From Escherichia coli (lineage in GTDB: Bacteria; Pseudomonadota; Gammaproteobacteria; Enterobacterales; Enterobacteriaceae), in assembly GCF_003334355.1 (NCBI RefSeq), contig NZ_QOWP01000003.1: DNA of 64,000 bases; one strand, 5' to 3'. A program made the position numbers and the translations under genes. Below are positions 8,622 to 64,000 of this stretch, in pieces. The notes beneath the pieces are model-generated. The model searched no databases, had not been told where the DNA came from, and saw only the letters and a list, made by a program, of their open reading frames with translations. Numbering within the stretch: position 1 is the stretch's first letter; each line of letters opens with the position of its first letter.

Positions 8622-8697
<76 letters not shown>

Positions 8698-8854
8698 TTA
8701 ATCTTCGTCTTTCGAACCGCTACTGCCTTGGCTGCCTTCACTCACCTTAGTCACATACTTTTGTAAGTTCCCAAGGATTCGTTCAGTTGCCGCCTTGTCG
8801 CAATTCGAAATACTGCGATTGGGTGGTCTGTGCTTTGCAGCACTTTTCAAATTT

Positions 8855-8930
<76 letters not shown>

Positions 8931-37987: not shown

Positions 37988-38563
37988 GTGCAACGTGAAG
38001 ATGTACTGGGAGAAGCCCTGAAATTATTAGAATTACAAGGGATTGCCAACACCACGCTGGAGATGGTTGCTGAACGTGTGGATTATCCACTGGACGAGCT
38101 ACGCCGCTTCTGGCCAGACAAAGAGGCAATCCTCTACGATGCGCTGCGTTATCTTAGCCAACAGATAGATGTCTGGCGTCGTCAGCTGATGCTGGACGAA
38201 ACGCAAACCGCCGAACAAAAGCTGCTGGCACGTTATCAGGCGTTATCGGAGTGCGTTAAAAACAACCGCTATCCGGGCTGTCTATTTATCGCTGCCTGTA
38301 CGTTTTATCCCGATCCTGGCCACCCTATTCATCAACTGGCCGATCAGCAAAAAAGCGCGGCCTACGATTTCACCCACGAACTGTTAACCACACTGGAAGT
38401 TGACGATCCGGCGATGGTAGCAAAGCAGATGGAACTGGTGCTGGAAGGCTGTTTAAGCCGAATGCTGGTGAATCGTAGCCAGGCGGATGTCGACACTGCA
38501 CATCGGCTGGCGGAAGATATCCTGCGCTTCGCCCGCTGCCGCCAGGGTGGTGCATTGACCTGA
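37988..38563 (+). CDS. yjdC: Putative TetR-family transcriptional regulator YjdC, 191 aa, GTG start
   Basis: ORF track 37964-38563; product from GTG at 37988 reads (M)[30 protein letters not shown] (HTH). Confidence 0.82.
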
Positions 38564-38669
38564 CAGAAACACAGAAAAGAAGCGATTTGCCGCAATCTTA
38601 AGCAGTTGAATCGCTTTTACTGAAATTAGGTTGACGAGATGTGCAGATTACGGTTTAATGCGCCCCGTT

Positions 38670-38745
38670 GCCCGGATAGCTCAGTCGGTAGAGCAGGGGA
38701 TTGAAAATCCCCGTGTCCTTGGTTCGATTCCGAGTCCGGGCACCA
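38670..38745 (+). tRNA. pheU: tRNA-Phe (anticodon GAA)
   Basis: GCCCGGATAGCTCAGTCGGTAGAGCAGGGGATTGAAAATCCCCGTGTCCTTGGTTCGATTCCGAGTCCGGGCACCA, 76 nt with cloverleaf and CCA end. Confidence 0.95.
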
Positions 38746-38755
38746 AATTCATATA

Positions 38756-38786
38756 AACGGACCTCCACGGAGGTCCGTTTTTCGTT
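38756..38786 (+). terminator. pheU intrinsic terminator
   Basis: GGACCTCC-ac-GGAGGTCC hairpin followed by GTTTTTCGTTT, 10 nt after the tRNA. Confidence 0.8.
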
Positions 38787-39361
38787 TCAGGACGCCACGA
38801 TTTAAGCGTTCTGCCTCCAAATCAATTCTACCGAACTCAACCAGATTCTCCCCACATCACCAGCAATTTGCGGGCATATCCCAATTCGGGAAAATTTGTT
38901 CCTGAGCTATAGCACTAACTGACGTGAAATGTCGTGCGGCCCCGTGATGCTGTTGAACGTCAAATGACGTCATCAGGAGCGTAACGCATCCATAAAGCAC
39001 AACACCGGTCTGAACGGCGACTGATGAGATTTTCTGAATGAGAACAAAGAGAAATGTATCAGTTCGCTTGCTCATGCAAAGACTAACAATCCATTAAAAT
39101 AGTAAGTGCTCCGGACAATTTTCCATGGATTATTTTCTGAACATTTTTCTTTGGCAAAGATGATGAATTTTGATGGTAAGGAATATTACTTCTGGTTCTC
39201 AGTAAAATCCTTTCGTAATACTATGTAATCAAGAAGTTTATGGCTGGTAAAAATAACGTCTTGCATTCACCAATAATATGTAAATAAACCCATCTATAGA
39301 TGGTAAAAATAGGTTGTGGCAATTATCATTGCATCATTCCCTTTTCGAATGAGTTTCTATT

Positions 39362-40900
39362 ATGCAACAACCTGTAGTTCGCGTTGGCGAATGGCTTGTT
39401 ACTCCGTCCATAAACCAAATTAGCCGCAATGGGCGTCAACTTACCCTTGAGCCGAGATTAATCGATCTTCTGGTTTTCTTTGCTCAACACAGTGGCGAAG
39501 TACTTAGCAGGGATGAACTTATCGATAATGTCTGGAAGAGAAGTATTGTCACCAATCACGTTGTGACGCAGAGTATCTCAGAACTACGTAAGTCATTAAA
39601 AGATAATGATGAAGATAGTCCTGTCTATATCGCTACTGTACCAAAGCGCGGCTATAAATTAATGGTGCCGGTTATCTGGTACAGCGAAGAAGAGGGAGAG
39701 AAAATAATGCTATCTTCGCCTCCCCCTATACCAGAGGCGGTTCCTGCCACAGATTCTCCCTCCCACAGTCTTAACATTCAAAACACCGCAACGCCACCTG
39801 AACAATCCCCAGTTAAAAGCAAACGATTCACTACCTTTTGGGTATGGTTTTTTTTCCTGTTGTCGTTAGGTATCTGTGTAGCACTGGTAGCGTTTTCAAG
39901 TCTTGATACACGTCTTCCTATGAGCAAATCGCGTATTTTGCTCAATCCACGCGATATTGACATTAATATGGTAAATAAAAGTTGTAACAGCTGGAGTTCC
40001 CCGTATCAGCTCTCTTACGCGATAGGCGTGGGTGATTTGGTGGCGACATCACTTAACACCTTCTCCACCTTTATGGTGCATGACAAAATCAACTACAACA
40101 TTGATGAACCGAGCAGTTCCGGTAAAACATTATCTATTGCGTTTGTTAATCAGCGCCAATACCGTGCTCAACAATGCTTTATGTCGATAAAATTGGTAGA
40201 CAATGCAGATGGTTCAACCATGCTGGATAAACGTTATGTCATCACTAACGGTAATCAGCTGGCGATTCAAAATGATTTACTGGAGAGTTTATCAAAAGCG
40301 TTAAACCAACCGTGGCCACAACGAATGCAGGAGACGCTCCAGAAAATTTTGCCGCATCGTGGTGCGTTATTAACTAATTTTTATCAGGCACATGATTATT
40401 TACTGCATGGCGATGATAAATCATTGAACCGTGCCAGTGAATTATTAGGTGAGATTGTTCAATCATCCCCAGAATTTACCTACGCGAGAGCAGAAAAAGC
40501 ATTAGTTGATATCGTGCGCCATTCTCAACATCCTTTAGATGAAAAACAATTAGCAGCACTGAACACAGAAATAGATAACATTGTTACACTGCCGGAATTG
40601 AACAACCTGTCCATTATATATCAAATAAAAGCGGTCAGTGCTCTGGTAAAAGGTAAAACAGATGAGTCTTACCAGGCGATAAATACTGGCATTGATCTTG
40701 AAATGTCCTGGCTAAATTATGTGTTGCTTGGCAAGGTTTATGAAATGAAGGGGATGAACCGGGAAGCAGCTGATGCATATCTCACCGCCTTTAATTTACG
40801 CCCAGGGGCAAACACCCTTTACTGGATTGAAAATGGTATATTCCAGACTTCTGTTCCTTATGTTGTACCTTATCTCGACAAATTTCTTGCTTCAGAATAA
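39362..40900 (+). CDS. cadC: Membrane-integrated pH/lysine-responsive transcriptional activator CadC
   Basis: ORF track 512 aa MQQPVVRVGEWLVTPSINQISRNGRQLTLEPRLIDLLVFF (winged-helix), single TM, PPPIP motif at codons 120-124. Confidence 0.95.
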   Translation: MQQPVVRVGEWLVTPSINQISRNGRQLTLEPRLIDLLVFFAQHSGEVLSRDELIDNVWKRSIVTNHVVTQSISELRKSLKDNDEDSPVYIATVPKRGYKLMVPVIWYSEEEGEKIMLSSPPPIPEAVPATDSPSHSLNIQNTATPPEQSPVKSKRFTTFWVWFFFLLSLGICVALVAFSSLDTRLPMSKSRILLNPRDIDINMVNKSCNSWSSPYQLSYAIGVGDLVATSLNTFSTFMVHDKINYNIDEPSSSGKTLSIAFVNQRQYRAQQCFMSIKLVDNADGSTMLDKRYVITNGNQLAIQNDLLESLSKALNQPWPQRMQETLQKILPHRGALLTNFYQAHDYLLHGDDKSLNRASELLGEIVQSSPEFTYARAEKALVDIVRHSQHPLDEKQLAALNTEIDNIVTLPELNNLSIIYQIKAVSALVKGKTDESYQAINTGIDLEMSWLNYVLLGKVYEMKGMNREAADAYLTAFNLRPGANTLYWIENGIFQTSVPYVVPYLDKFLASE

Positions 40901-41264
40901 GTAACTCCGGGTTGATTTATGCTCGGAAATATTTGTTGTTGAGTTTTTGTATGTTCCTGTTGGTATAATATGTTGCGGCAATTTATTTGCCGCATAATTT
41001 TTATTACATAAATTTAACCAGAGAATGTCACGCAATCCATTGTAAACATTAAATGTTTATCTTTTCATGATATCAACTTGCGATCCTGATGTGTTAATAA
41101 AAAACCTCAAGTTCTCACTTACAGAAACTTTTGTGTTATTTCACCTAATCTTTAGGATTAATCCTTTTTTCGTGAGTAATCTTATCGCCAGTTTGGTCTG
41201 GTCAGGAAATAGTTATACATCATGACCCGGACTCCAAATTCAAAAATGAAATTAGGAGAAGAGC
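40901..41264 (+). promoter_or_regulatory. cadBA promoter region (Pcad), AT-rich; expected to hold the CadC and H-NS binding sites
   Basis: 364-bp AT-rich intergenic region upstream of cadB; exact site positions not resolved by eye. Confidence 0.5.
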
Positions 41265-42599
41265 ATGAGTTCTGCCAAGAAGATCGGGCTATTTGCCTGT
41301 ACCGGTGTTGTTGCCGGTAATATGATGGGGAGCGGTATTGCATTATTACCTGCGAACCTAGCAAGTATCGGTGGTATTGCTATCTGGGGTTGGATTATCT
41401 CTATTATTGGTGCAATGTCGCTGGCGTATGTATATGCCCGACTGGCAACAAAAAACCCGCAACAAGGTGGCCCAATTGCTTATGCCGGAGAAATTTCCCC
41501 TGCATTTGGTTTTCAGACAGGTGTTCTTTATTACCATGCTAACTGGATTGGTAACCTGGCGATTGGTATTACCGCTGTATCTTATCTTTCCACCTTCTTC
41601 CCAGTATTAAATGATCCTGTTCCGGCGGGTATCGCCTGTATTGCTATCGTCTGGGTATTTACCTTTGTAAATATGCTCGGCGGTACTTGGGTAAGCCGTT
41701 TAACCACTATTGGTCTGGTGCTGGTTCTTATTCCTGTGGTGATGACTGCTATTGTTGGCTGGCATTGGTTTGATGCGGCAACTTATGCAGCTAACTGGAA
41801 TACTGCGGATACCACTGATGGTCATGCGATCATTAAAAGTATTCTGCTCTGCCTGTGGGCCTTCGTGGGTGTTGAATCCGCAGCTGTAAGTACTGGTATG
41901 GTTAAAAACCCGAAACGTACCGTTCCGCTGGCAACCATGCTGGGTACTGGTTTAGCAGGTATTGTTTACATCGCTGCGACTCAGGTGCTTTCCGGTATGT
42001 ATCCGTCTTCTGTAATGGCGGCTTCCGGTGCTCCGTTTGCAATCAGTGCTTCAACTATCCTCGGTAACTGGGCTGCGCCGCTGGTTTCTGCATTCACCGC
42101 CTTTGCGTGCCTGACTTCTCTGGGCTCCTGGATGATGTTGGTAGGCCAGGCAGGTGTACGTGCCGCTAACGACGGTAACTTCCCGAAAGTTTATGGTGAA
42201 GTCGACAGCAACGGTATTCCGAAAAAAGGTCTGCTGCTGGCTGCAGTGAAAATGACTGCCCTGATGATCCTTATCACTCTGATGAACTCTGCCGGTGGTA
42301 AAGCATCTGACCTGTTCGGTGAACTGACCGGTATCGCAGTACTGCTGACTATGCTGCCGTATTTCTACTCTTGCGTTGACCTGATTCGTTTTGAAGGCGT
42401 TAACATCCGCAACTTTGTCAGCCTGATCTGCTCTGTACTGGGTTGCGTGTTCTGCTTCATCGCGCTGATGGGCGCAAGCTCCTTCGAGCTGGCAGGTACC
42501 TTCATCGTCAGCCTGATTATCCTGATGTTCTACGCTCGCAAAATGCACGAGCGCCAGAGCCACTCAATGGATAACCACACCGCGTCTAACGCACATTAA
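41265..42599 (+). CDS. cadB: Lysine:cadaverine antiporter CadB
   Basis: ORF track 444 aa MSSAKKIGLFACTGVVAGNMMGSGIALLPANLASIGG... Confidence 0.95.
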   Translation: MSSAKKIGLFACTGVVAGNMMGSGIALLPANLASIGGIAIWGWIISIIGAMSLAYVYARLATKNPQQGGPIAYAGEISPAFGFQTGVLYYHANWIGNLAIGITAVSYLSTFFPVLNDPVPAGIACIAIVWVFTFVNMLGGTWVSRLTTIGLVLVLIPVVMTAIVGWHWFDAATYAANWNTADTTDGHAIIKSILLCLWAFVGVESAAVSTGMVKNPKRTVPLATMLGTGLAGIVYIAATQVLSGMYPSSVMAASGAPFAISASTILGNWAAPLVSAFTAFACLTSLGSWMMLVGQAGVRAANDGNFPKVYGEVDSNGIPKKGLLLAAVKMTALMILITLMNSAGGKASDLFGELTGIAVLLTMLPYFYSCVDLIRFEGVNIRNFVSLICSVLGCVFCFIALMGASSFELAGTFIVSLIILMFYARKMHERQSHSMDNHTASNAH

Positions 42600-42616
42600 T
42601 TAAAAGTATTTTCCGA

Positions 42617-42662
42617 GGCTCCTCCTTTCATTTTGTCCCATGTGTTGGGAGGGGCCTTTTTT
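42617..42662 (+). other. Intercistronic hairpin with U tract between cadB and cadA
   Basis: GGCUCCUCC...GGAGGGGCC stem (one G-U pair) followed by UUUUUU, ending 17 nt before the cadA start codon. Confidence 0.4.
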
Positions 42663-42678
42663 ACCTGGAGATATGACT

Positions 42679-44826
42679 ATGAACGTTATTGCAATATTGA
42701 ATCACATGGGGGTTTATTTTAAAGAAGAACCCATCCGTGAACTTCATCGCGCGCTTGAACGTCTGAACTTCCAGATTGTTTACCCGAACGACCGTGACGA
42801 CTTATTAAAACTGATCGAAAACAATGCGCGTCTGTGCGGCGTTATTTTTGACTGGGATAAATATAATCTCGAGCTGTGCGAAGAAATTAGCAAAATGAAC
42901 GAGAACCTGCCGTTGTACGCGTTCGCTAATACGTATTCCACTCTCGATGTAAGCCTGAATGACCTGCGTTTACAGATTAGCTTCTTTGAATATGCGCTGG
43001 GTGCTGCTGAAGATATTGCTAATAAGATCAAGCAGACCACTGACGAATATATCAACACTATTCTGCCTCCGCTGACTAAAGCACTGTTTAAATATGTTCG
43101 TGAAGGTAAATATACTTTCTGTACTCCTGGTCACATGGGCGGTACTGCATTCCAGAAAAGCCCGGTAGGTAGCCTGTTCTATGATTTCTTTGGTCCGAAT
43201 ACCATGAAATCTGATATTTCCATTTCAGTATCTGAACTGGGTTCTCTGCTGGATCACAGTGGTCCACACAAAGAAGCAGAACAGTATATCGCTCGCGTCT
43301 TTAACGCAGACCGCAGCTACATGGTGACCAACGGTACTTCCACTGCGAACAAAATTGTTGGTATGTACTCTGCTCCAGCAGGCAGCACCATTCTGATTGA
43401 CCGTAACTGCCACAAATCGCTGACCCACCTGATGATGATGAGCGATGTTACGCCAATCTATTTCCGCCCGACCCGTAACGCTTACGGTATTCTTGGTGGT
43501 ATCCCACAGAGTGAATTCCAGCACGCTACCATTGCTAAGCGCGTGAAAGAAACACCAAACGCAACCTGGCCGGTACATGCTGTAATTACCAACTCTACCT
43601 ATGATGGTCTGCTGTACAACACCGACTTCATCAAGAAAACACTGGATGTGAAATCCATCCACTTTGACTCCGCGTGGGTGCCTTACACCAACTTCTCACC
43701 GATTTACGAAGGTAAATGCGGTATGAGCGGTGGCCGTGTAGAAGGGAAAGTGATTTACGAAACCCAGTCCACTCACAAACTGCTGGCGGCGTTCTCTCAG
43801 GCTTCCATGATCCACGTTAAAGGTGACGTAAACGAAGAAACCTTTAACGAAGCCTACATGATGCACACCACCACTTCTCCGCACTACGGTATCGTGGCGT
43901 CCACTGAAACCGCTGCGGCGATGATGAAAGGCAATGCAGGTAAGCGTCTGATCAACGGTTCCATTGAACGTGCGATCAAATTCCGTAAAGAGATCAAACG
44001 TCTGAGAACGGAATCTGATGGCTGGTTCTTTGATGTATGGCAGCCGGATCATATCGATACGACTGAATGCTGGCCGCTGCGTTCTGACAGCACCTGGCAC
44101 GGCTTCAAAAACATCGATAACGAGCACATGTATCTTGACCCGATCAAAGTCACCCTGCTGACTCCGGGGATGGAAAAAGACGGCACCATGAGCGACTTTG
44201 GTATTCCGGCCAGCATCGTGGCGAAATACCTCGACGAACATGGCATCGTTGTTGAGAAAACCGGTCCGTATAACCTGCTGTTCCTGTTCAGCATCGGTAT
44301 CGATAAGACCAAAGCACTGAGCCTGCTGCGTGCTCTGACTGACTTTAAACGTGCGTTCGACCTGAACCTGCGTGTGAAAAACATGCTGCCGTCTCTGTAT
44401 CGTGAAGATCCTGAATTCTATGAAAACATGCGTATTCAGGAACTGGCTCAGAATATCCACAAACTGATTGTTCACCACAATCTGCCGGATCTGATGTATC
44501 GCGCATTTGAAGTGCTGCCGACGATGGTAATGACTCCGTATGCTGCATTCCAGAAAGAGCTGCACGGTATGACCGAAGAAGTTTACCTCGACGAAATGGT
44601 AGGTCGTATTAACGCCAATATGATCCTTCCGTACCCGCCGGGAGTTCCTCTGGTAATGCCGGGTGAAATGATCACCGAAGAAAGCCGTCCGGTTCTGGAG
44701 TTCCTGCAGATGCTGTGTGAAATCGGCGCTCACTATCCGGGCTTTGAAACCGATATTCACGGTGCATACCGTCAGGCTGATGGCCGCTATACCGTTAAGG
44801 TATTGAAAGAAGAAAGCAAAAAATAA
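42679..44826 (+). CDS. cadA: Inducible lysine decarboxylase CadA, 715 aa
   Basis: ORF track 42640-44826 trimmed to MNVIAILNHMGVYFKEEPIRELHRALERLNF; PLP-lysine motif region STHKLL. Confidence 0.97.
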   Translation: MNVIAILNHMGVYFKEEPIRELHRALERLNFQIVYPNDRDDLLKLIENNARLCGVIFDWDKYNLELCEEISKMNENLPLYAFANTYSTLDVSLNDLRLQISFFEYALGAAEDIANKIKQTTDEYINTILPPLTKALFKYVREGKYTFCTPGHMGGTAFQKSPVGSLFYDFFGPNTMKSDISISVSELGSLLDHSGPHKEAEQYIARVFNADRSYMVTNGTSTANKIVGMYSAPAGSTILIDRNCHKSLTHLMMMSDVTPIYFRPTRNAYGILGGIPQSEFQHATIAKRVKETPNATWPVHAVITNSTYDGLLYNTDFIKKTLDVKSIHFDSAWVPYTNFSPIYEGKCGMSGGRVEGKVIYETQSTHKLLAAFSQASMIHVKGDVNEETFNEAYMMHTTTSPHYGIVASTETAAAMMKGNAGKRLINGSIERAIKFRKEIKRLRTESDGWFFDVWQPDHIDTTECWPLRSDSTWHGFKNIDNEHMYLDPIKVTLLTPGMEKDGTMSDFGIPASIVAKYLDEHGIVVEKTGPYNLLFLFSIGIDKTKALSLLRALTDFKRAFDLNLRVKNMLPSLYREDPEFYENMRIQELAQNIHKLIVHHNLPDLMYRAFEVLPTMVMTPYAAFQKELHGMTEEVYLDEMVGRINANMILPYPPGVPLVMPGEMITEESRPVLEFLQMLCEIGAHYPGFETDIHGAYRQADGRYTVKVLKEESKK

Positions 44827-44837
44827 TTAGCTCGTAC

Positions 44838-44868
44838 AAGGGAAGTGGCTTGCCACTTCCCTTTTTTG
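44838..44868 (+). terminator. cadBA operon intrinsic terminator
   Basis: AAGGGAAGTGG-cttg-CCACTTCCCTT hairpin followed by TTTTTG, 12 nt after cadA stop. Confidence 0.85.
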
Positions 44869-44884
44869 CTCATAAGGAGAACAC

Positions 44885-46342
44885 ATGAAAACACCCTCAC
44901 AGCCGCGCGCGATATACTATATCGTGGCGATCCAAATCTGGGAGTACTTCAGTTTTTACGGCATGCGTGCCTTACTCATTCTCTATCTCACCCATCAGCT
45001 TGGTTTTGATGATAACCATGCCATCAGCCTGTTCAGCGCATATGCTTCTCTGGTTTACGTTACCCCTATTCTCGGCGGCTGGCTTGCCGACCGCCTGCTC
45101 GGCAACCGCACTGCAGTGATTGCCGGCGCGCTGTTAATGACCCTTGGCCATGTGGTGCTGGGTATTGATACAAATTCAACCTTTAGCCTGTATCTGGCGC
45201 TGGCAATCATTATTTGTGGCTACGGTTTATTCAAATCAAACATCAGCTGTTTGCTTGGCGAGCTCTACGACGAGAACGATCATCGACGTGATGGCGGTTT
45301 TTCGCTGCTGTATGCTGCGGGCAATATCGGTTCTATCGCAGCCCCAATCGCCTGCGGCCTGGCTGCTCAGTGGTATGGATGGCATGTTGGCTTTGCCCTT
45401 GCGGGTGGCGGCATGTTTATCGGTTTGTTGATTTTCTTAAGCGGTCATCGTCATTTCCAGTCCACACGTAGTATGGATAAAAAAGCGCTCACTAGTGTCA
45501 AATTTGCCTTACCAGTATGGAGCTGGTTAGTGGTGATGCTCTGTTTAGCCCCAGTATTTTTTACTCTGCTGCTGGAGAACGACTGGTCCGGATATTTGCT
45601 GGCGATCGTTTGCCTCATTGCCGCACAAATCATTGCCCGCATGATGTTCAAATTCCCCGAACATCGCCGTGCTCTTTGGCAAATTGTATTGTTGATGTTT
45701 GTCGGGACATTGTTCTGGGTACTGGCACAACAGGGCGGCAGTACCATCAGCTTGTTTATCGATCGCTTTGTGAATCGTCAGGCATTCAATATTGAAGTAC
45801 CTACAGCACTATTCCAGTCGGTGAATGCAATTGCGGTGATGCTCGCTGGGGTTGTACTGGCCTGGCTGGCGTCGCCAGAAAGCCGCGGCAACTCAACATT
45901 GCGCGTCTGGCTGAAGTTTGCCTTTGGCTTACTGCTGATGGCTTGTGGCTTTATGTTGTTGGCATTTGATGCCCGACATGCAGCGGCTGACGGTCAAGCG
46001 TCAATGGGCGTGATGATATCCGGGCTGGCGCTAATGGGCTTTGCCGAACTCTTTATTGACCCGGTGGCGATTGCGCAAATCACGCGTCTGAAAATGTCTG
46101 GCGTATTAACCGGGATTTATATGCTGGCAACAGGCGCGGTCGCCAACTGGCTGGCAGGCGTCGTGGCACAGCAGACGACAGAGTCGCAAATTAGCGGTAT
46201 GGCAATTGCAGCTTACCAGCGATTCTTTTCTCAGATGGGAGAGTGGACGTTGGCTTGTGTCGCGATCATCGTCGTATTGGCCTTTGCTACCCGTTTTCTG
46301 TTTAGCACGCCGACGAATATGATACAGGAGAGCAACGATTAA
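44885..46342 (+). CDS. dtpC: Dipeptide/tripeptide:H+ symporter DtpC (YjdL), POT family
   Basis: ORF track 485 aa [36 protein letters not shown] (POT signature). Confidence 0.93.
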
Positions 46343-46578
46343 CTGTCGTAAAAACAATTGGTTATGAATAAATTAACTTTCAGTTTATAACACTAACAAA
46401 TCGAGATTAATAAGTCATTTAAACCATTTTGATGGTTATTTATTAGTGATATCAACTTGAGGTAAGCGTTAGTTTCGATAAGATAAACTGAGTTACTAAT
46501 AGTCGAGGCAGATAATACAGTGTACCGATCTGTCTCTTTATCTACGCTAAATTGAAAGCTGGATTTAGAGGAACCAAA

Positions 46579-48096
46579 ATGTCTGAACAAGAAACACGGG
46601 GAGCCAATGAGGCTATTGATTTTAACGATGAACTGAGAAATCGCCGCGAAAAACTGGCGGCACTACGTCAGCAAGGTGTGGCGTTTCCCAATGATTTTCG
46701 CCGCGACCATACCTCTGACCAGTTGCACGAAGAGTTTGATGCGAAGGATAACCAGGAACTGGAATCCTTAAACATTGAAGTCTCGGTTGCTGGCCGAATG
46801 ATGACCCGTCGTATCATGGGGAAAGCCTCCTTTGTAACGTTGCAGGATGTCGGTGGCCGTATTCAACTGTACGTTGCAAGAGATAGCCTGCCAGAAGGTG
46901 TTTATAACGATCAGTTTAAAAAATGGGATCTGGGTGACATTATCGGTGCCCGCGGTACGCTGTTTAAGACGCAAACGGGTGAGCTTTCCATTCACTGTAC
47001 TGAGTTGCGCCTGCTGACAAAAGCACTACGTCCTTTACCAGATAAATTCCATGGTCTGCAGGATCAGGAAGTCCGTTATCGTCAACGTTATCTGGACCTC
47101 ATCGCTAACGATAAATCCCGTCAAACGTTTGTTGTCCGTTCAAAAATTCTGGCCGCTATCCGTCAGTTCATGGTCGCGCGCGGCTTTATGGAAGTAGAAA
47201 CCCCGATGATGCAGGTAATTCCAGGTGGGGCATCTGCTCGCCCATTTATTACCCATCATAATGCTCTGGATTTAGATATGTATCTGCGTATCGCGCCGGA
47301 GCTGTATCTGAAACGTCTGGTTGTAGGCGGTTTTGAACGGGTATTCGAAATCAACCGTAACTTCCGTAATGAAGGTATTTCTGTTCGCCATAATCCTGAG
47401 TTCACAATGATGGAACTCTACATGGCGTATGCGGATTACCACGATTTGATTGAACTGACAGAGTCACTGTTCCGCACCCTGGCACAAGAGGTTCTGGGTA
47501 CCACTAAAGTCACTTATGGCGAGCATGTGTTTGATTTCGGCAAACCGTTTGAAAAACTCACCATGCGCGAAGCAATCAAAAAATATCGTCCAGAAACCGA
47601 TATGGCCGACCTGGATAATTTTGATGCTGCTAAAGCATTAGCTGAATCTATCGGAATTACGGTAGAGAAAAGCTGGGGGCTGGGACGTATTGTCACGGAG
47701 ATCTTTGATGAAGTGGCAGAAGCACATCTGATTCAGCCAACCTTTATTACGGAATATCCGGCAGAAGTGTCCCCGCTGGCGCGCCGTAATGATGTTAACC
47801 CGGAAATCACCGACCGTTTTGAATTCTTCATCGGTGGTCGTGAAATCGGTAATGGTTTTAGCGAATTAAACGACGCAGAAGATCAGGCTGAACGTTTCCA
47901 GGAACAGGTTAACGCTAAAGCTGCAGGTGACGACGAAGCCATGTTCTATGACGAAGATTACGTGACTGCGCTGGAATATGGTCTGCCGCCAACCGCTGGT
48001 CTGGGTATTGGCATCGACCGAATGATTATGCTGTTTACAAACAGTCATACTATTCGTGACGTTATTCTCTTCCCGGCGATGCGCCCACAGAAATAA
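46579..48096 (+). CDS. lysU: Lysine--tRNA ligase, inducible form LysU, 505 aa
   Basis: ORF track 46552-48096 trimmed to [33 protein letters not shown]; assigned lysU rather than lysS by genomic context next to cadA/dtpC. Confidence 0.93.
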
Positions 48097-48114
48097 ATTT
48101 CTCTTTTCTTTAAT

Positions 48115-48144
48115 GAACGAAGCAGTCAGGCGACTGCTTCGTTC
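48115..48144. other. 13-bp-stem hairpin between convergent lysU and ghoT (no clear U tract on either strand)
   Basis: GAACGAAGCAGTC-agg-CGACTGCTTCGTTC perfect inverted repeat seen directly. Confidence 0.5.
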
Positions 48145-48219
48145 ATCGTTCCGCAAATCCAGTTTTGAGGAGAGACGCTTCGTTTCACGATAACCAGCGG
48201 GTCCACTCAACTACAGCTC

Positions 48220-48393
48220 CTAAAAGAGAGAAAAAAGTAATGCCACAGGCAGACTCATTGGCCAGGTTATTCCGACCAGGAATGCACTAAGTAAACGAAT
48301 ATGTGTTTTCTCATGTGAGATAAACCAGATAATGACAAAGGATATGTTCACACCAATCACATAAAAAATTAATATTTTAGAGAATAGTGCCAT
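48220..48393 (-). CDS. ghoT: Type V toxin-antitoxin membrane toxin GhoT (YjdO), 57 aa (not in ORF track)
   Basis: Own translation of reverse complement: MALFSKILIFYVIGVNISFVIIWFISHEKTHIRLLSAFLVGITWPMSLPVALLFSLF*; 27 nt downstream of ghoS. Confidence 0.82.
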   Translation of the reverse strand: MALFSKILIFYVIGVNISFVIIWFISHEKTHIRLLSAFLVGITWPMSLPVALLFSLF

Positions 48394-48420
48394 TTTTTAT
48401 GTTCTTCTTATCCTTCCTGG

Positions 48421-48717
48421 CTACTTGTAAAACTGACGGAAATAGTCATCAACTGTCATAATGTTGAGGTCAAAATCAATATCCGGTAAGTCTAAGCATT
48501 TAAGCCTGATTAAATCTTCGATTTCACTTGCGGCTAACGATGTCGTTATTGCGAAGGAATTTTCATTCAATTGTCGTGGTATCCCATATTCATCAGCCAC
48601 GATAGAAGAGAAATTCATATCATACATCAATGATCTTAATCTTAAGAACACTGAGGAATAAGATGATGGATAATCAAAAGAAACAATATAAGTATTGAAC
48701 TTGTTTTTACCTTCCAT
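48421..48717 (-). CDS. ghoS: Type V antitoxin GhoS (YjdK), endoribonuclease specific for ghoT mRNA
   Basis: ORF track 98 aa MEGKNKFNTYIVSFDYPSSYSSVFLRLRSLMYDMNF... Confidence 0.85.
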   Translation of the reverse strand: MEGKNKFNTYIVSFDYPSSYSSVFLRLRSLMYDMNFSSIVADEYGIPRQLNENSFAITTSLAASEIEDLIRLKCLDLPDIDFDLNIMTVDDYFRQFYK

Positions 48718-48943
48718 AATATGACTCCTATCAATATTGAACGCTCAGGGGACGCAAAACTTATTAACCCCGATTGATGATTCTCATATAGGAGATATTC
48801 TTTTTTTTGCTCAGTAAAGGGGATGACTTGGGACAAAAAAACGCGCTCTCTGCCCATTCTTTGTGCATCCCCCTACCTTTCAGATGCTCTCCTGCATCAC
48901 ACCGCGGAGAGCATGAAAAATATCGTGAATCTGTACTCTCCCA

Positions 48944-49216
48944 TCAACTGCGAATATCATCATACTCCCGCGTTTTATCAAATTCGTGTTTCGCAAATGG
49001 GCATAGTGGGATAATTTTTCGTTTTTCCCGACGCATTTTTTCCACGACTTTCGCAACCAGCTGTTTACCAATCCCTTGCCCTTTCAGGCTTTCATCGACA
49101 TCGGTATGTTCGATAATCGCTAAATTCTCTCCGGTCGGCACAAAAACAATTTCAGCGATTTGCTTGCCTTGTTCGTCATTAATGTAAAATTTATTGTGGC
49201 CTTCGCGTATTTCCAT
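48944..49216 (-). CDS. yjdJ: Small GNAT-family putative acetyltransferase YjdJ
   Basis: ORF track 90 aa [54 protein letters not shown] (acetyl-CoA binding Q/RxxGxG/A-like). Confidence 0.8.
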
Positions 49217-49227
49217 TTTACCCTCGC

Positions 49228-49458
49228 TTATTTATGACGGTATTTCAGCGCGCCGCTCGGGCACGTATCAATCACTTTAACCACAGTGACGACGTCGACT
49301 TCATCCGGCATGATCCACGGCTTTCGTTTGAGATTAAATAACTTGCCGTTGCCACGTACGCAATTGCCAGAATGCTGACATATCGCAGTGTTGAAATAGA
49401 CATCGATCTTTTCGCCGGTATAACAGCGATAACCCTCGTCCAGTAGCGCCTGATCCAT
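49228..49458 (-). CDS. yjdI: Uncharacterised Cys-rich protein YjdI
   Basis: ORF track 76 aa [41 protein letters not shown]... Confidence 0.8.
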
Positions 49459-49638
49459 GACTTTCCCTCTCTCATCAGTATGATTATCGCTATAAGCATA
49501 GCCCTGGAATCTTCATACAGCACTGGCAGTTTCCGTTGCCAGAGTCTCTTCCCCTATATAGCCAATCATTCTTACTCCCTTTGAATTACCCGCCTCATCA
49601 GAGATAATGCTTAAGAAATTTGTCACACAAGGAAGCTG

Positions 49639-51270
49639 ATGAGACATTCATTGCCCTACCGCATGTTACGCAAACGTCCGATGAAATTGAGTACCACAGT
49701 GATCTTAATGGTCAGCGCGGTACTGTTCTCGGTGCTATTGGTGGTGCATCTGATTTACTTCTCGCAAATCAGTGATATGACGCGAGACGGGCTGGCCAAC
49801 AAGGCACTGGCAGTGGCGCGTACCCTCGCCGACTCGCCGGAAATCCGTCAGGGCTTGCAGAAAAAACCGCAGGAGAGTGGAATCCAGGCCATCGCGGAAG
49901 CCGTGCGCAAACGCAACGATCTGCTGTTTATTGTCGTTACCGATATGCAAAGTCTTCGCTATTCGCATCCTGAAGCCCAGCGTATTGGTCAGCCATTTAA
50001 AGGTGATGACATCCTTAAAGCGCTGAATGGCGAAGAAAATGTCGCTATCAATCGCGGTTTTCTGGCGCAGGCTTTACGCGTATTTACCCCCATCTACGAT
50101 GAAAATCATAAACAAATTGGCGTGGTGGCGATCGGCCTTGAGTTAAGCCGCGTGACCCAACAGATCAATGACAGTCGCTGGAGCATTATCTGGTCAGTAT
50201 TATTTGGCATGCTGGTCGGACTGATTGGCACCTGCATTCTGGTTAAAGTACTGAAAAAAATCCTTTTCGGCCTGGAACCCTACGAAATCTCCACGCTGTT
50301 TGAGCAACGCCAGGCCATGTTGCAGTCTATCAAAGAAGGCGTCGTTGCCGTGGACGATCGCGGCGAGGTCACGCTGATCAACGATGCCGCACAAGAATTG
50401 CTGAATTACCGTAAGTCGCAGGACGATGAGAAACTGTCGACGCTAAGCCACTCGTGGTCACAGGTGGTAGATGTCTCGGAAGTGTTACGCGACGGTACCC
50501 CGCGCCGCGACGAAGAGATTACGATTAAAGATCGGCTATTACTGATCAACACCGTTCCGGTGCGCAGTAATGGCGTTATCATCGGTGCCATTTCAACCTT
50601 CAGGGACAAAACTGAAGTACGTAAACTGATGCAGCGACTCGACGGTCTGGTCAACTATGCTGATGCACTTCGTGAACGATCCCACGAATTTATGAATAAA
50701 TTGCATGTGATTCTCGGATTATTGCATCTGAAGAGTTATAAGCAGTTGGAAGATTACATTCTCAAAACAGCCAATAACTATCAGGAAGAGATTGGCTCTC
50801 TGCTGGGTAAGATCAAATCTCCGGTTATCGCTGGTTTTTTAATCAGCAAGATTAATCGCGCGACCGATTTAGGCCATACGCTGATTTTAAACAGTGAAAG
50901 CCAGCTGCCAGACAGCGGCAGTGAGGACCAGGTCGCGACGCTGATTACCACATTGGGAAATCTGATAGAAAACGCGCTGGAAGCATTAGGGCCGGAACCC
51001 GGTGGCGAAATTAGCGTAACATTGCACTACCGTCACGGCTGGCTGCACTGCGAAGTTAACGATGATGGACCGGGGATCGCACCCGACAAAATCGATCACA
51101 TTTTTGACAAAGGTGTCTCGACAAAAGGAAGCGAGCGAGGCGTCGGTTTAGCACTTGTCAAACAACAGGTAGAAAATCTCGGCGGCAGCATCGCCGTGGA
51201 ATCGGAACCCGGGATTTTCACACAATTTTTTGTCCAGATACCCTGGGACGGGGAGAGGTCGAACAGATGA
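49639..51270 (+). CDS. dcuS: C4-dicarboxylate sensor histidine kinase DcuS
   Basis: ORF track 543 aa; two TM helices, periplasmic PAS-like domain, C-terminal HATPase (GLALVKQQVENLGGSI). Confidence 0.95.
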   Translation: MRHSLPYRMLRKRPMKLSTTVILMVSAVLFSVLLVVHLIYFSQISDMTRDGLANKALAVARTLADSPEIRQGLQKKPQESGIQAIAEAVRKRNDLLFIVVTDMQSLRYSHPEAQRIGQPFKGDDILKALNGEENVAINRGFLAQALRVFTPIYDENHKQIGVVAIGLELSRVTQQINDSRWSIIWSVLFGMLVGLIGTCILVKVLKKILFGLEPYEISTLFEQRQAMLQSIKEGVVAVDDRGEVTLINDAAQELLNYRKSQDDEKLSTLSHSWSQVVDVSEVLRDGTPRRDEEITIKDRLLLINTVPVRSNGVIIGAISTFRDKTEVRKLMQRLDGLVNYADALRERSHEFMNKLHVILGLLHLKSYKQLEDYILKTANNYQEEIGSLLGKIKSPVIAGFLISKINRATDLGHTLILNSESQLPDSGSEDQVATLITTLGNLIENALEALGPEPGGEISVTLHYRHGWLHCEVNDDGPGIAPDKIDHIFDKGVSTKGSERGVGLALVKQQVENLGGSIAVESEPGIFTQFFVQIPWDGERSNR

Positions 51271-63372: not shown

Positions 63373-64000
63373 ATGAGGATTTGCAGCGACCAACCTTGTA
63401 TTGTTTTATTGACTGAAAAAGATGTCTGGATAAGGGTGAATGGGAAAGAACCTATTAGCCTTAAAGCTAACCATATGGCGTTATTAAATTGTGAAAATAA
63501 TATTATCGACGTCTCCTCTCTTAACAACACTTTGGTTGCTCATATTAGTCACGACATCATCAAAGATTACCTCCGGTTTCTGAATAAAGATCTCTCGCAA
63601 ATACCAGTATGGCAACGTAGCGCTACGCCCATACTCACCCTGCCATGCCTGACGCCAGACGTCTTTCGCGTTGCCGCGCAACACAGCATGATGCCCGCAG
63701 AAACTGAGTCAGAAAAGGAACGAACACGCGCATTATTATTCACGGTGCTATCCCGTTTTCTCGACAGTAAAAAATTCGTTTCATTAATGATGTATATGTT
63801 ACGTAATTGTGTAAGTGACAGCGTTTATCAAATTATTGAAAGCGATATTCACAAAGACTGGAATCTTAGTATGGTAGCCAGTTGTTTATGTCTTAGCCCA
63901 AGTCTGTTAAAGAAAAAGTTGAAAAGCGAAAACACCAGTTATAGCCAAATAATCACCACCTGCCGCATGCGTTATGCCGTAAATGAATTAATGATGGACG
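63373..64000 (+). CDS. adiY: AraC-family regulator AdiY, N-terminal 209 codons (3' end beyond window)
   Basis: Own translation from ATG at 63373: MRICSDQPCIVLLTEKDVWIRVNGKEPISLKANHMALLNCENNIID...; open to the window end; not in ORF track. Confidence 0.85.
   Translation, partial: MRICSDQPCIVLLTEKDVWIRVNGKEPISLKANHMALLNCENNIIDVSSLNNTLVAHISHDIIKDYLRFLNKDLSQIPVWQRSATPILTLPCLTPDVFRVAAQHSMMPAETESEKERTRALLFTVLSRFLDSKKFVSLMMYMLRNCVSDSVYQIIESDIHKDWNLSMVASCLCLSPSLLKKKLKSENTSYSQIITTCRMRYAVNELMMD

Follow-up and report, generated by a model that had tools for sequence, protein, structure and literature searches.

The window, as the whole 64-kb stretch of Escherichia coli DNA analysed is called here, carries an intact gene for tRNA-Phe, pheU, flanked by dicD (yjdC) and cadC; ARAGORN, Rfam and RefSeq annotation agree on this arrangement. 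With yjdC on one side and cadC on the other, pheU is a textbook site of island insertion (PMC7686366, PMC11537424, PMC7545054), and these two genes serve as the flanks of the island site (PMC7686366). A spacer of 616 bp separates the end of pheU from the cadC ATG at 39362. The features from pheU onwards are the following:

38670-38745, plus strand: pheU, tRNA-Phe(GAA), intact (ARAGORN; Rfam RF00005, 68.3 bits; annotated in K-12 and other genomes)
38723-38745, plus strand: attB core, the last 23 nt of pheU (the far-end direct repeat of islands in occupied genomes)
38746-38908, plus strand: island-type arm and integrase leader, hairpin included (alignment A1; left junctions; terminator scan)
38909-39102, plus strand: P4-type tyrosine integrase relic, the K-12 pseudogene yjdQ, b4654 (tblastn, RefSeq, K-12 annotation)
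39103-39216, plus strand: DNA matching the int 3' flank of an intact pheU island, with a degenerate int terminator hairpin (blastn)
39217-39295, no strand assigned: 79-bp stretch between the island homology and the cad-block homology (conserved in other Escherichia lineages, alignment A2)
39296-48096, plus strand: cadC-cadB-cadA-dtpC-lysU block, all genes intact (ORFs, stop-free translations, near-identity to K-12)
39362-40900, plus strand: cadC, 512 aa, no internal stop
41265-42599, plus strand: cadB, 444 aa, no internal stop
42679-44826, plus strand: cadA, 715 aa, no internal stop
44885-46342, plus strand: dtpC
ending at 48096, plus strand: lysU ORF

The attB core of the window has the same sequence as the direct repeat at the borders of islands in occupied genomes, and the window has a single copy of it. 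Where an island is present, the match to the window on the cadC side starts at 38716-38725, and at the right junction of strain 55989 the repeat reads TTCGATTCCGAGTCC-GGCACCA (alignment A1). The 23-nt tRNA 3' end does not recur in the 64-kb window, whether 3 or 6 mismatches are allowed. A degenerate-repeat search of the window (23 nt at up to 6 mismatches, 18 nt at up to 4 and 15 nt at up to 3) recovered the tRNA itself and two chance 15-mers and nothing else, and Rfam at permissive thresholds matched only the tRNA within 38500-41400. A preliminary description of this DNA had called the pheU hotspot unoccupied, with no foreign genes and no direct repeat of the tRNA 3' end, and these statements stand: the attachment core is intact, there is no island, and no cargo lies between pheU and cadC. 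The pheU site is currently without an island and would be open to P4-type integrases. Judging from its sequence, the attB is probably still competent for integration.

The same description reported no integrase, which proved incorrect. A relic of a P4-type integrase occupies 38909-39102, and RefSeq annotates a pseudogene at 38943-39102 as a frameshifted, N-terminally incomplete tyrosine recombinase; in K-12 the relic bears the name yjdQ. The tblastn query used to delimit it was the intact 420-aa Int of strain FORC_043, whose pheU site is occupied and whose integrase gene starts 198 bp past the tRNA. Residues 1-11 of this Int align at 38909-38941 (IALTDVKCRAA versus MALTDAKIRAA), with the start ATG changed to ATA. 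Residues 359-391 follow one base after this 5' piece, at 38943-39026, interrupted by an in-frame stop and a gap of 5 codons, and residues 397-420 lie past a frameshift at 39028-39099, reaching the stop codon. The relic retains about 73 of 420 codons. The roughly 347 missing codons encode the arm-binding and central domains and almost the whole catalytic domain; in the intact Int, which matches PHROG 1 (integrase), Arm-DNA-bind_3, Phage_int_M and Phage_integrase span residues 3-86, 98-192 and 210-383.

The 11-codon 5' piece has an E value of 0.11 by itself and owes its credibility only to its collinearity with the alignment of the arm DNA. The first codon of the relic, at 38909, aligns with the int start codon of intact pheU islands, and its offset from the tRNA falls below 198 bp because of deletions of 12 bp and 22 bp in the arm. 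A PHROG profile search with the conceptual translation of the relic returned no match, the translation being too degraded. Homology to one intact integrase family, together with the RefSeq annotation, points to a P4-type integrase. Whatever remains of that gene is interrupted and annotated as a pseudogene, so that no functional integrase adjoins the tRNA 3' end, and yjdQ is a gene remnant rather than a functional member of the P4-type tyrosine integrase family. Among the papers searched, none dealt with yjdQ. A 72-aa minus-strand ORF runs antisense over the relic at 38857-39075; it is regarded as spurious, as no genome inspected carries an annotation for it.

The DNA between the tRNA and the relic is likewise of island type. 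Apart from the 12-bp and 22-bp deletions, 38746-38908 is homologous to the DNA that extends from pheU to the int start in intact islands (A1), and the left junctions of occupied genomes match the window as far as about 38859. A terminator scan places a terminator-like hairpin, with a 12-bp perfect stem followed by a T run, at 38755-38780. The preliminary description assigned this structure to pheU as its own terminator; the hairpin and the T run are indeed present, but the assignment to pheU is contradicted by a survey of other genera. A DicD scan with one genome per species yielded 80 Enterobacteriaceae loci, among them 61 non-Escherichia loci with enough sequence. In these, pheU usually precedes another hairpin, AACCCAGCC...GGCTGGGTT and variants, and the window-type hairpin, GGACCTCC...GGAGGTCC, is found in just 5 of the 61. 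An integrase of the relic's family begins 196-198 bp past the tRNA in 4 of these 5 loci, while 55 of the 56 loci without the window hairpin are also without such an integrase (Fisher p = 5e-5). Since the window hairpin co-occurs with this Int family, it is part of the island arm. The hairpin after pheU is thus linked to the island and is not the ancestral pheU terminator.

Homology to islands continues downstream of the relic. Window positions 39090-39216 align by blastn with 5674-5801 of L003, an intact pheU island, at 71.5% over 130 bp (E = 8e-9). The match starts in the last codons of the relic and extends over 127 bp, 114 of them past the stop. Taken together, island-derived sequence runs from 38746 to about 39216 and makes up about 470 bp of the 616-bp spacer, roughly three quarters of it.

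The composition of the spacer is uneven. Its GC content is 39.6%, compared with 50.4% for the whole window. The earlier characterization of the spacer as AT-rich is accurate only in part: the last 259 bp upstream of cadC (31.7% GC) are the sole strongly AT-rich portion, and the relic reaches 44%. The distance of about 570 bp given for the DNA between the terminator and cadC agrees with the 581 bp measured past the hairpin. Shortly upstream of cadC, a 34-nt direct repeat (39239-39272 versus 39295-39328, 71% identity) shares the core TGGTAAAAATA, and its second copy starts where the cad-block homology of E. fergusonii begins. The repeat may reflect duplication of an operator or promoter element, or of a junction. 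Across Escherichia, the best-conserved part of the spacer is the last ~190 bp upstream of cadC. A genomic SELEX study of minor sigma factors reported a holoenzyme binding peak in the K-12 cadC-pheU spacer (PMC5493296); coordinate conversion suggests that this peak maps near the leader of the relic integrase.

The window very probably holds an ordinary K-12-type pheU locus in which the spacer is mostly the decayed tRNA-proximal end of an ancient P4-like island. Such an island at pheU would have left behind its left arm with the hairpin, the integrase pseudogene yjdQ and about 110 bp of int-downstream DNA, the integrase having lost its start codon in addition to the ~347 internal codons. The relic arose by deletion and not by site-specific excision, because precise excision by tyrosine recombinases leaves no integrase; the order of the deletions is inferred. 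The far boundary of the ancient island is not placeable: the search for an attR was negative both downstream of lysU and in the rest of the 64 kb, and the "native" pheU downstream hairpin of other genera, searched for in the window as a marker of an ancient attR, gave chance-level short matches only.

The preliminary description instead amounts to a reading in which the hotspot is pristine and has never been occupied, the intergenic DNA is simply AT-rich and the backbone is of commensal type. Between pheU and cadC there is indeed no intact integrase, direct repeat or cargo, and the closest genome over 44000-64000 is that of PSS-12, a human faecal isolate. However, comparison with island-bearing genomes reveals homology to the island arm, int and the int 3' flank in succession from 38746 to about 39216, and a spacer in which an integrase relic and island-type flanks take up about 470 of 616 bp refutes "never occupied". 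Two marks of past occupancy had been named in that description: integrase remnants, which were found, and a repeat of the tRNA 3' end, which was not. The pristine reading is very improbable on these grounds, and the distribution of the empty site among strains speaks against it further.

Occupied and empty sites can be told apart with a 961-bp query that reaches from dicD through pheU and the relic to the region upstream of cadC. Shorter junction queries do not separate the two states, since the right junction by itself covers 85% of such a query and the arms of island and relic are homologous. The long query is matched in one piece, indicating an uninterrupted dicD-pheU-relic-cadC order, in 3702 of 5426 complete E. 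coli genomes (68%). The uninterrupted site is present in O157:H7 strains, an ETEC and a strain named UPEC85, and a urinary-tract isolate that is 100% identical at the pheU region has it as well. In the opposite direction, a 44-kb pheU island is listed for ED1a, a commensal strain (PMC7545054). Emptiness at pheU is the majority state and is uninformative on lifestyle, and the proposal of a commensal-like backbone at this site is not borne out. "Empty" E. coli pheU sites always bear the integrase pseudogene and the island-type arm. An integrase fragment at pheU is no proof of an island for automated finders, just as small size is no proof of a clean site.

In most of the remaining sampled genomes, the far-end repeat of an island is followed by the relic and then by cadC; strain 55989, for example, has the order island end, direct repeat, relic, cadC. 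Modern islands enter the tRNA 3' end upstream of the relic, which stays beside cadC. In occupied genomes the island is flanked on either side by an imperfect repeat of about 200 bp, formed by the new arm and the relic arm. The island of 55989 ends in a CP4-type module with antirestriction, radC, cbeA/cbtA and DUF4942 genes. E. coli UTME-6 is the only chromosomal match in a spread sample that fits best at the tRNA-side rather than the cadC-side junction; its record holds just two matching places, and its pheU island opens with an intact integrase followed by IS66 fragments.

The relic might alternatively be a recent scar, left where this strain, or close ancestors of it, lost a modern pheU island by deletion. 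Islands are commonly lost in this way, and the ~200-bp imperfect repeats that flank islands in occupied genomes are a plausible substrate for recombinational loss. This reading is nonetheless scarcely credible, as the relic sits beside cadC with the same deletion junction in occupied E. coli too. E. whittamii, Escherichia sp. E1V33 and a more divergent lineage also have a spacer with the same internal deletion junction, at 76-91% identity (A2), and they retain small spacer pieces that have since been lost from E. coli. The internal deletion junction is shared across Escherichia lineages, and the relic is therefore ancient and predates the species. Fixation of the relic preceded the split of E. 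coli from E. whittamii and other Escherichia lineages.

The dicD side of pheU differs among genomes as well. The distance from dicD to pheU is about 107 bp in E. coli and about 2.2 kb in E. whittamii, E1V33 and many other genera; the latter genomes have an extra gene-sized segment between dicD and pheU, and E. coli is without it.

The closest described counterpart of the locus is in K-12 MG1655, where pheU, yjdQ' and cadC (b4134, b4654, b4133) show the same gene order, the same 616-bp spacing and the same yjdQ offset. Identity between the two genomes is 99.96% over 11 kb and 100% over 38400-39360; the 11,001 bp compared contain only 4 SNPs and not a single gap. Outside the pheU-cad region, the window is closer to PSS-12 than to K-12. 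The arrangement is ordinary and already annotated in K-12.

Genomic islands with a P4-type integrase at pheU and pheV have been described repeatedly (PMC7686366, PMC11537424, PMC7545054). The window shares the core, the arm, the hairpin and the int start with such intP4 islands (PAI-CFT073-pheU, LEE at pheU, SHI-3). It differs from them in that its integrase is interrupted and reduced to about 73 of 420 codons, and in that it lacks both a direct repeat and recognisable accessory cargo. The relic also resembles the decayed P4-like elements of K-12. In these cryptic CP4-type prophages and tRNA-adjacent integrase pseudogenes, deletional decay has left an integrase fragment directly 3' of a tRNA gene. 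The relic, at about 470 bp, is far smaller than they are, and it is conserved across Escherichia species.

The cad locus of the window is intact, as the preliminary description stated, with full-length, K-12-like cadC, cadB and cadA. The sole amino-acid change in the cad genes relative to K-12 is CadC E114K (window 39701), which is one of the 4 SNPs; the only other SNP in these genes is a synonymous one in cadA, and the cadC-cadB spacer has none. The Pfam families of CadC, Trans_reg_C (ToxR-like) and CadC_C1, are taken from a 99%-identical CadC. The CadC protein of PSS-12 has an accession that differs from the common one. The CadC-CadBA module is complete, with cadC, the cadB antiporter and the cadA decarboxylase in operon order and an intergenic promoter region, suggesting a functional cad operon, including the lysine-dependent acid response. 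The cad locus is the classic "antivirulence" locus, lost in Shigella and enteroinvasive E. coli. The "black hole" of those strains concerns the same cadCBA locus by pheU that is intact and K-12-like in the window.

The neighbourhood of the cad genes in other genomes raises the question of where the block came from. The dcuA-dsbD-dicD-pheU synteny is kept in all 80 Enterobacteriaceae loci, yet cadC follows pheU in Escherichia only. E. fergusonii carries the same five genes between dgcT and the tRNA-Ser gene serX with ghrA; its homology to the window extends exactly from 39296 to the lysU stop at 48096, at 90.2%, and the flanks differ. In Raoultella, Pseudescherichia vulneris and Trabulsiella guamensis, cadCBA-dtpC-lysU occupies yet another neighbourhood in each. 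As far as is known to the authors, the varying neighbourhood of cadCBA-dtpC-lysU among the genera examined is a new side result. Within E. coli the block is fixed. In one O8:H- strain of E. coli that carries LEE at pheU, about 10 kb comprising lysU-yjdL-cadABC is missing as a unit (PMC3408504).

An extension of the main explanation would make the relic the tRNA-proximal edge of an ancient P4-type pheU island whose cargo was cadCBA-dtpC-lysU. The idea is tentative and somewhat less probable than its negation, although several observations favour it: the restriction of cadC after pheU to Escherichia despite the conserved synteny upstream, the different flanks of the block in E. fergusonii, Raoultella, Pseudescherichia and Trabulsiella, and the exact ends of the E. 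fergusonii homology. Only 79 bp (39217-39295) separate the island-derived DNA from the block. The GC content of cadC is 41.9%, and that of cadC plus its flanks, at 32-42%, is low. The loss of lysU-yjdL-cadABC as a unit in the O8:H- strain is in keeping with such an origin. Against it, the attR is missing after lysU and from the rest of the window, and the boundary of the cad block cannot be tied to the relic. The block may have come first, and an unrelated island may have entered and decayed afterwards; relocation could have run either way between E. coli and E. fergusonii; and differing flanks may mean rearrangement rather than transfer. Among the papers searched, none treated the cad block as island cargo.

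It is possible, if rather doubtful, that cadCBA-dtpC-lysU is surviving island cargo and not ancestral backbone, in which case the integrase would have become yjdQ and the far repeat would have eroded. The cad block would then be an island turned core genome in one genus, and the ready loss of the whole block would be easier to understand from its location in an island slot next to a hotspot that is still active.

The wider surroundings of pheU vary too. Some Enterobacter and Kosakonia have yjdF 190-510 bp after pheU. In the window, yjdF (55744-56373) lies 17 kb downstream of pheU, past cad, dtpC, lysU, dcuSR, dcuB and fumB, and the whole 17 kb between pheU and yjdF may be a variable slot. The lysU-dcuS interval, at 48100-49640 and directly past the right edge of the cad block, has a GC content of 35-43% and contains small ORFs only. 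Elsewhere in the window, at 8622-8930 on the minus strand, two tandem tRNA-Gly(GCC) genes stand where the nearly identical PSS-12 has three, a difference of one ~111-bp unit.
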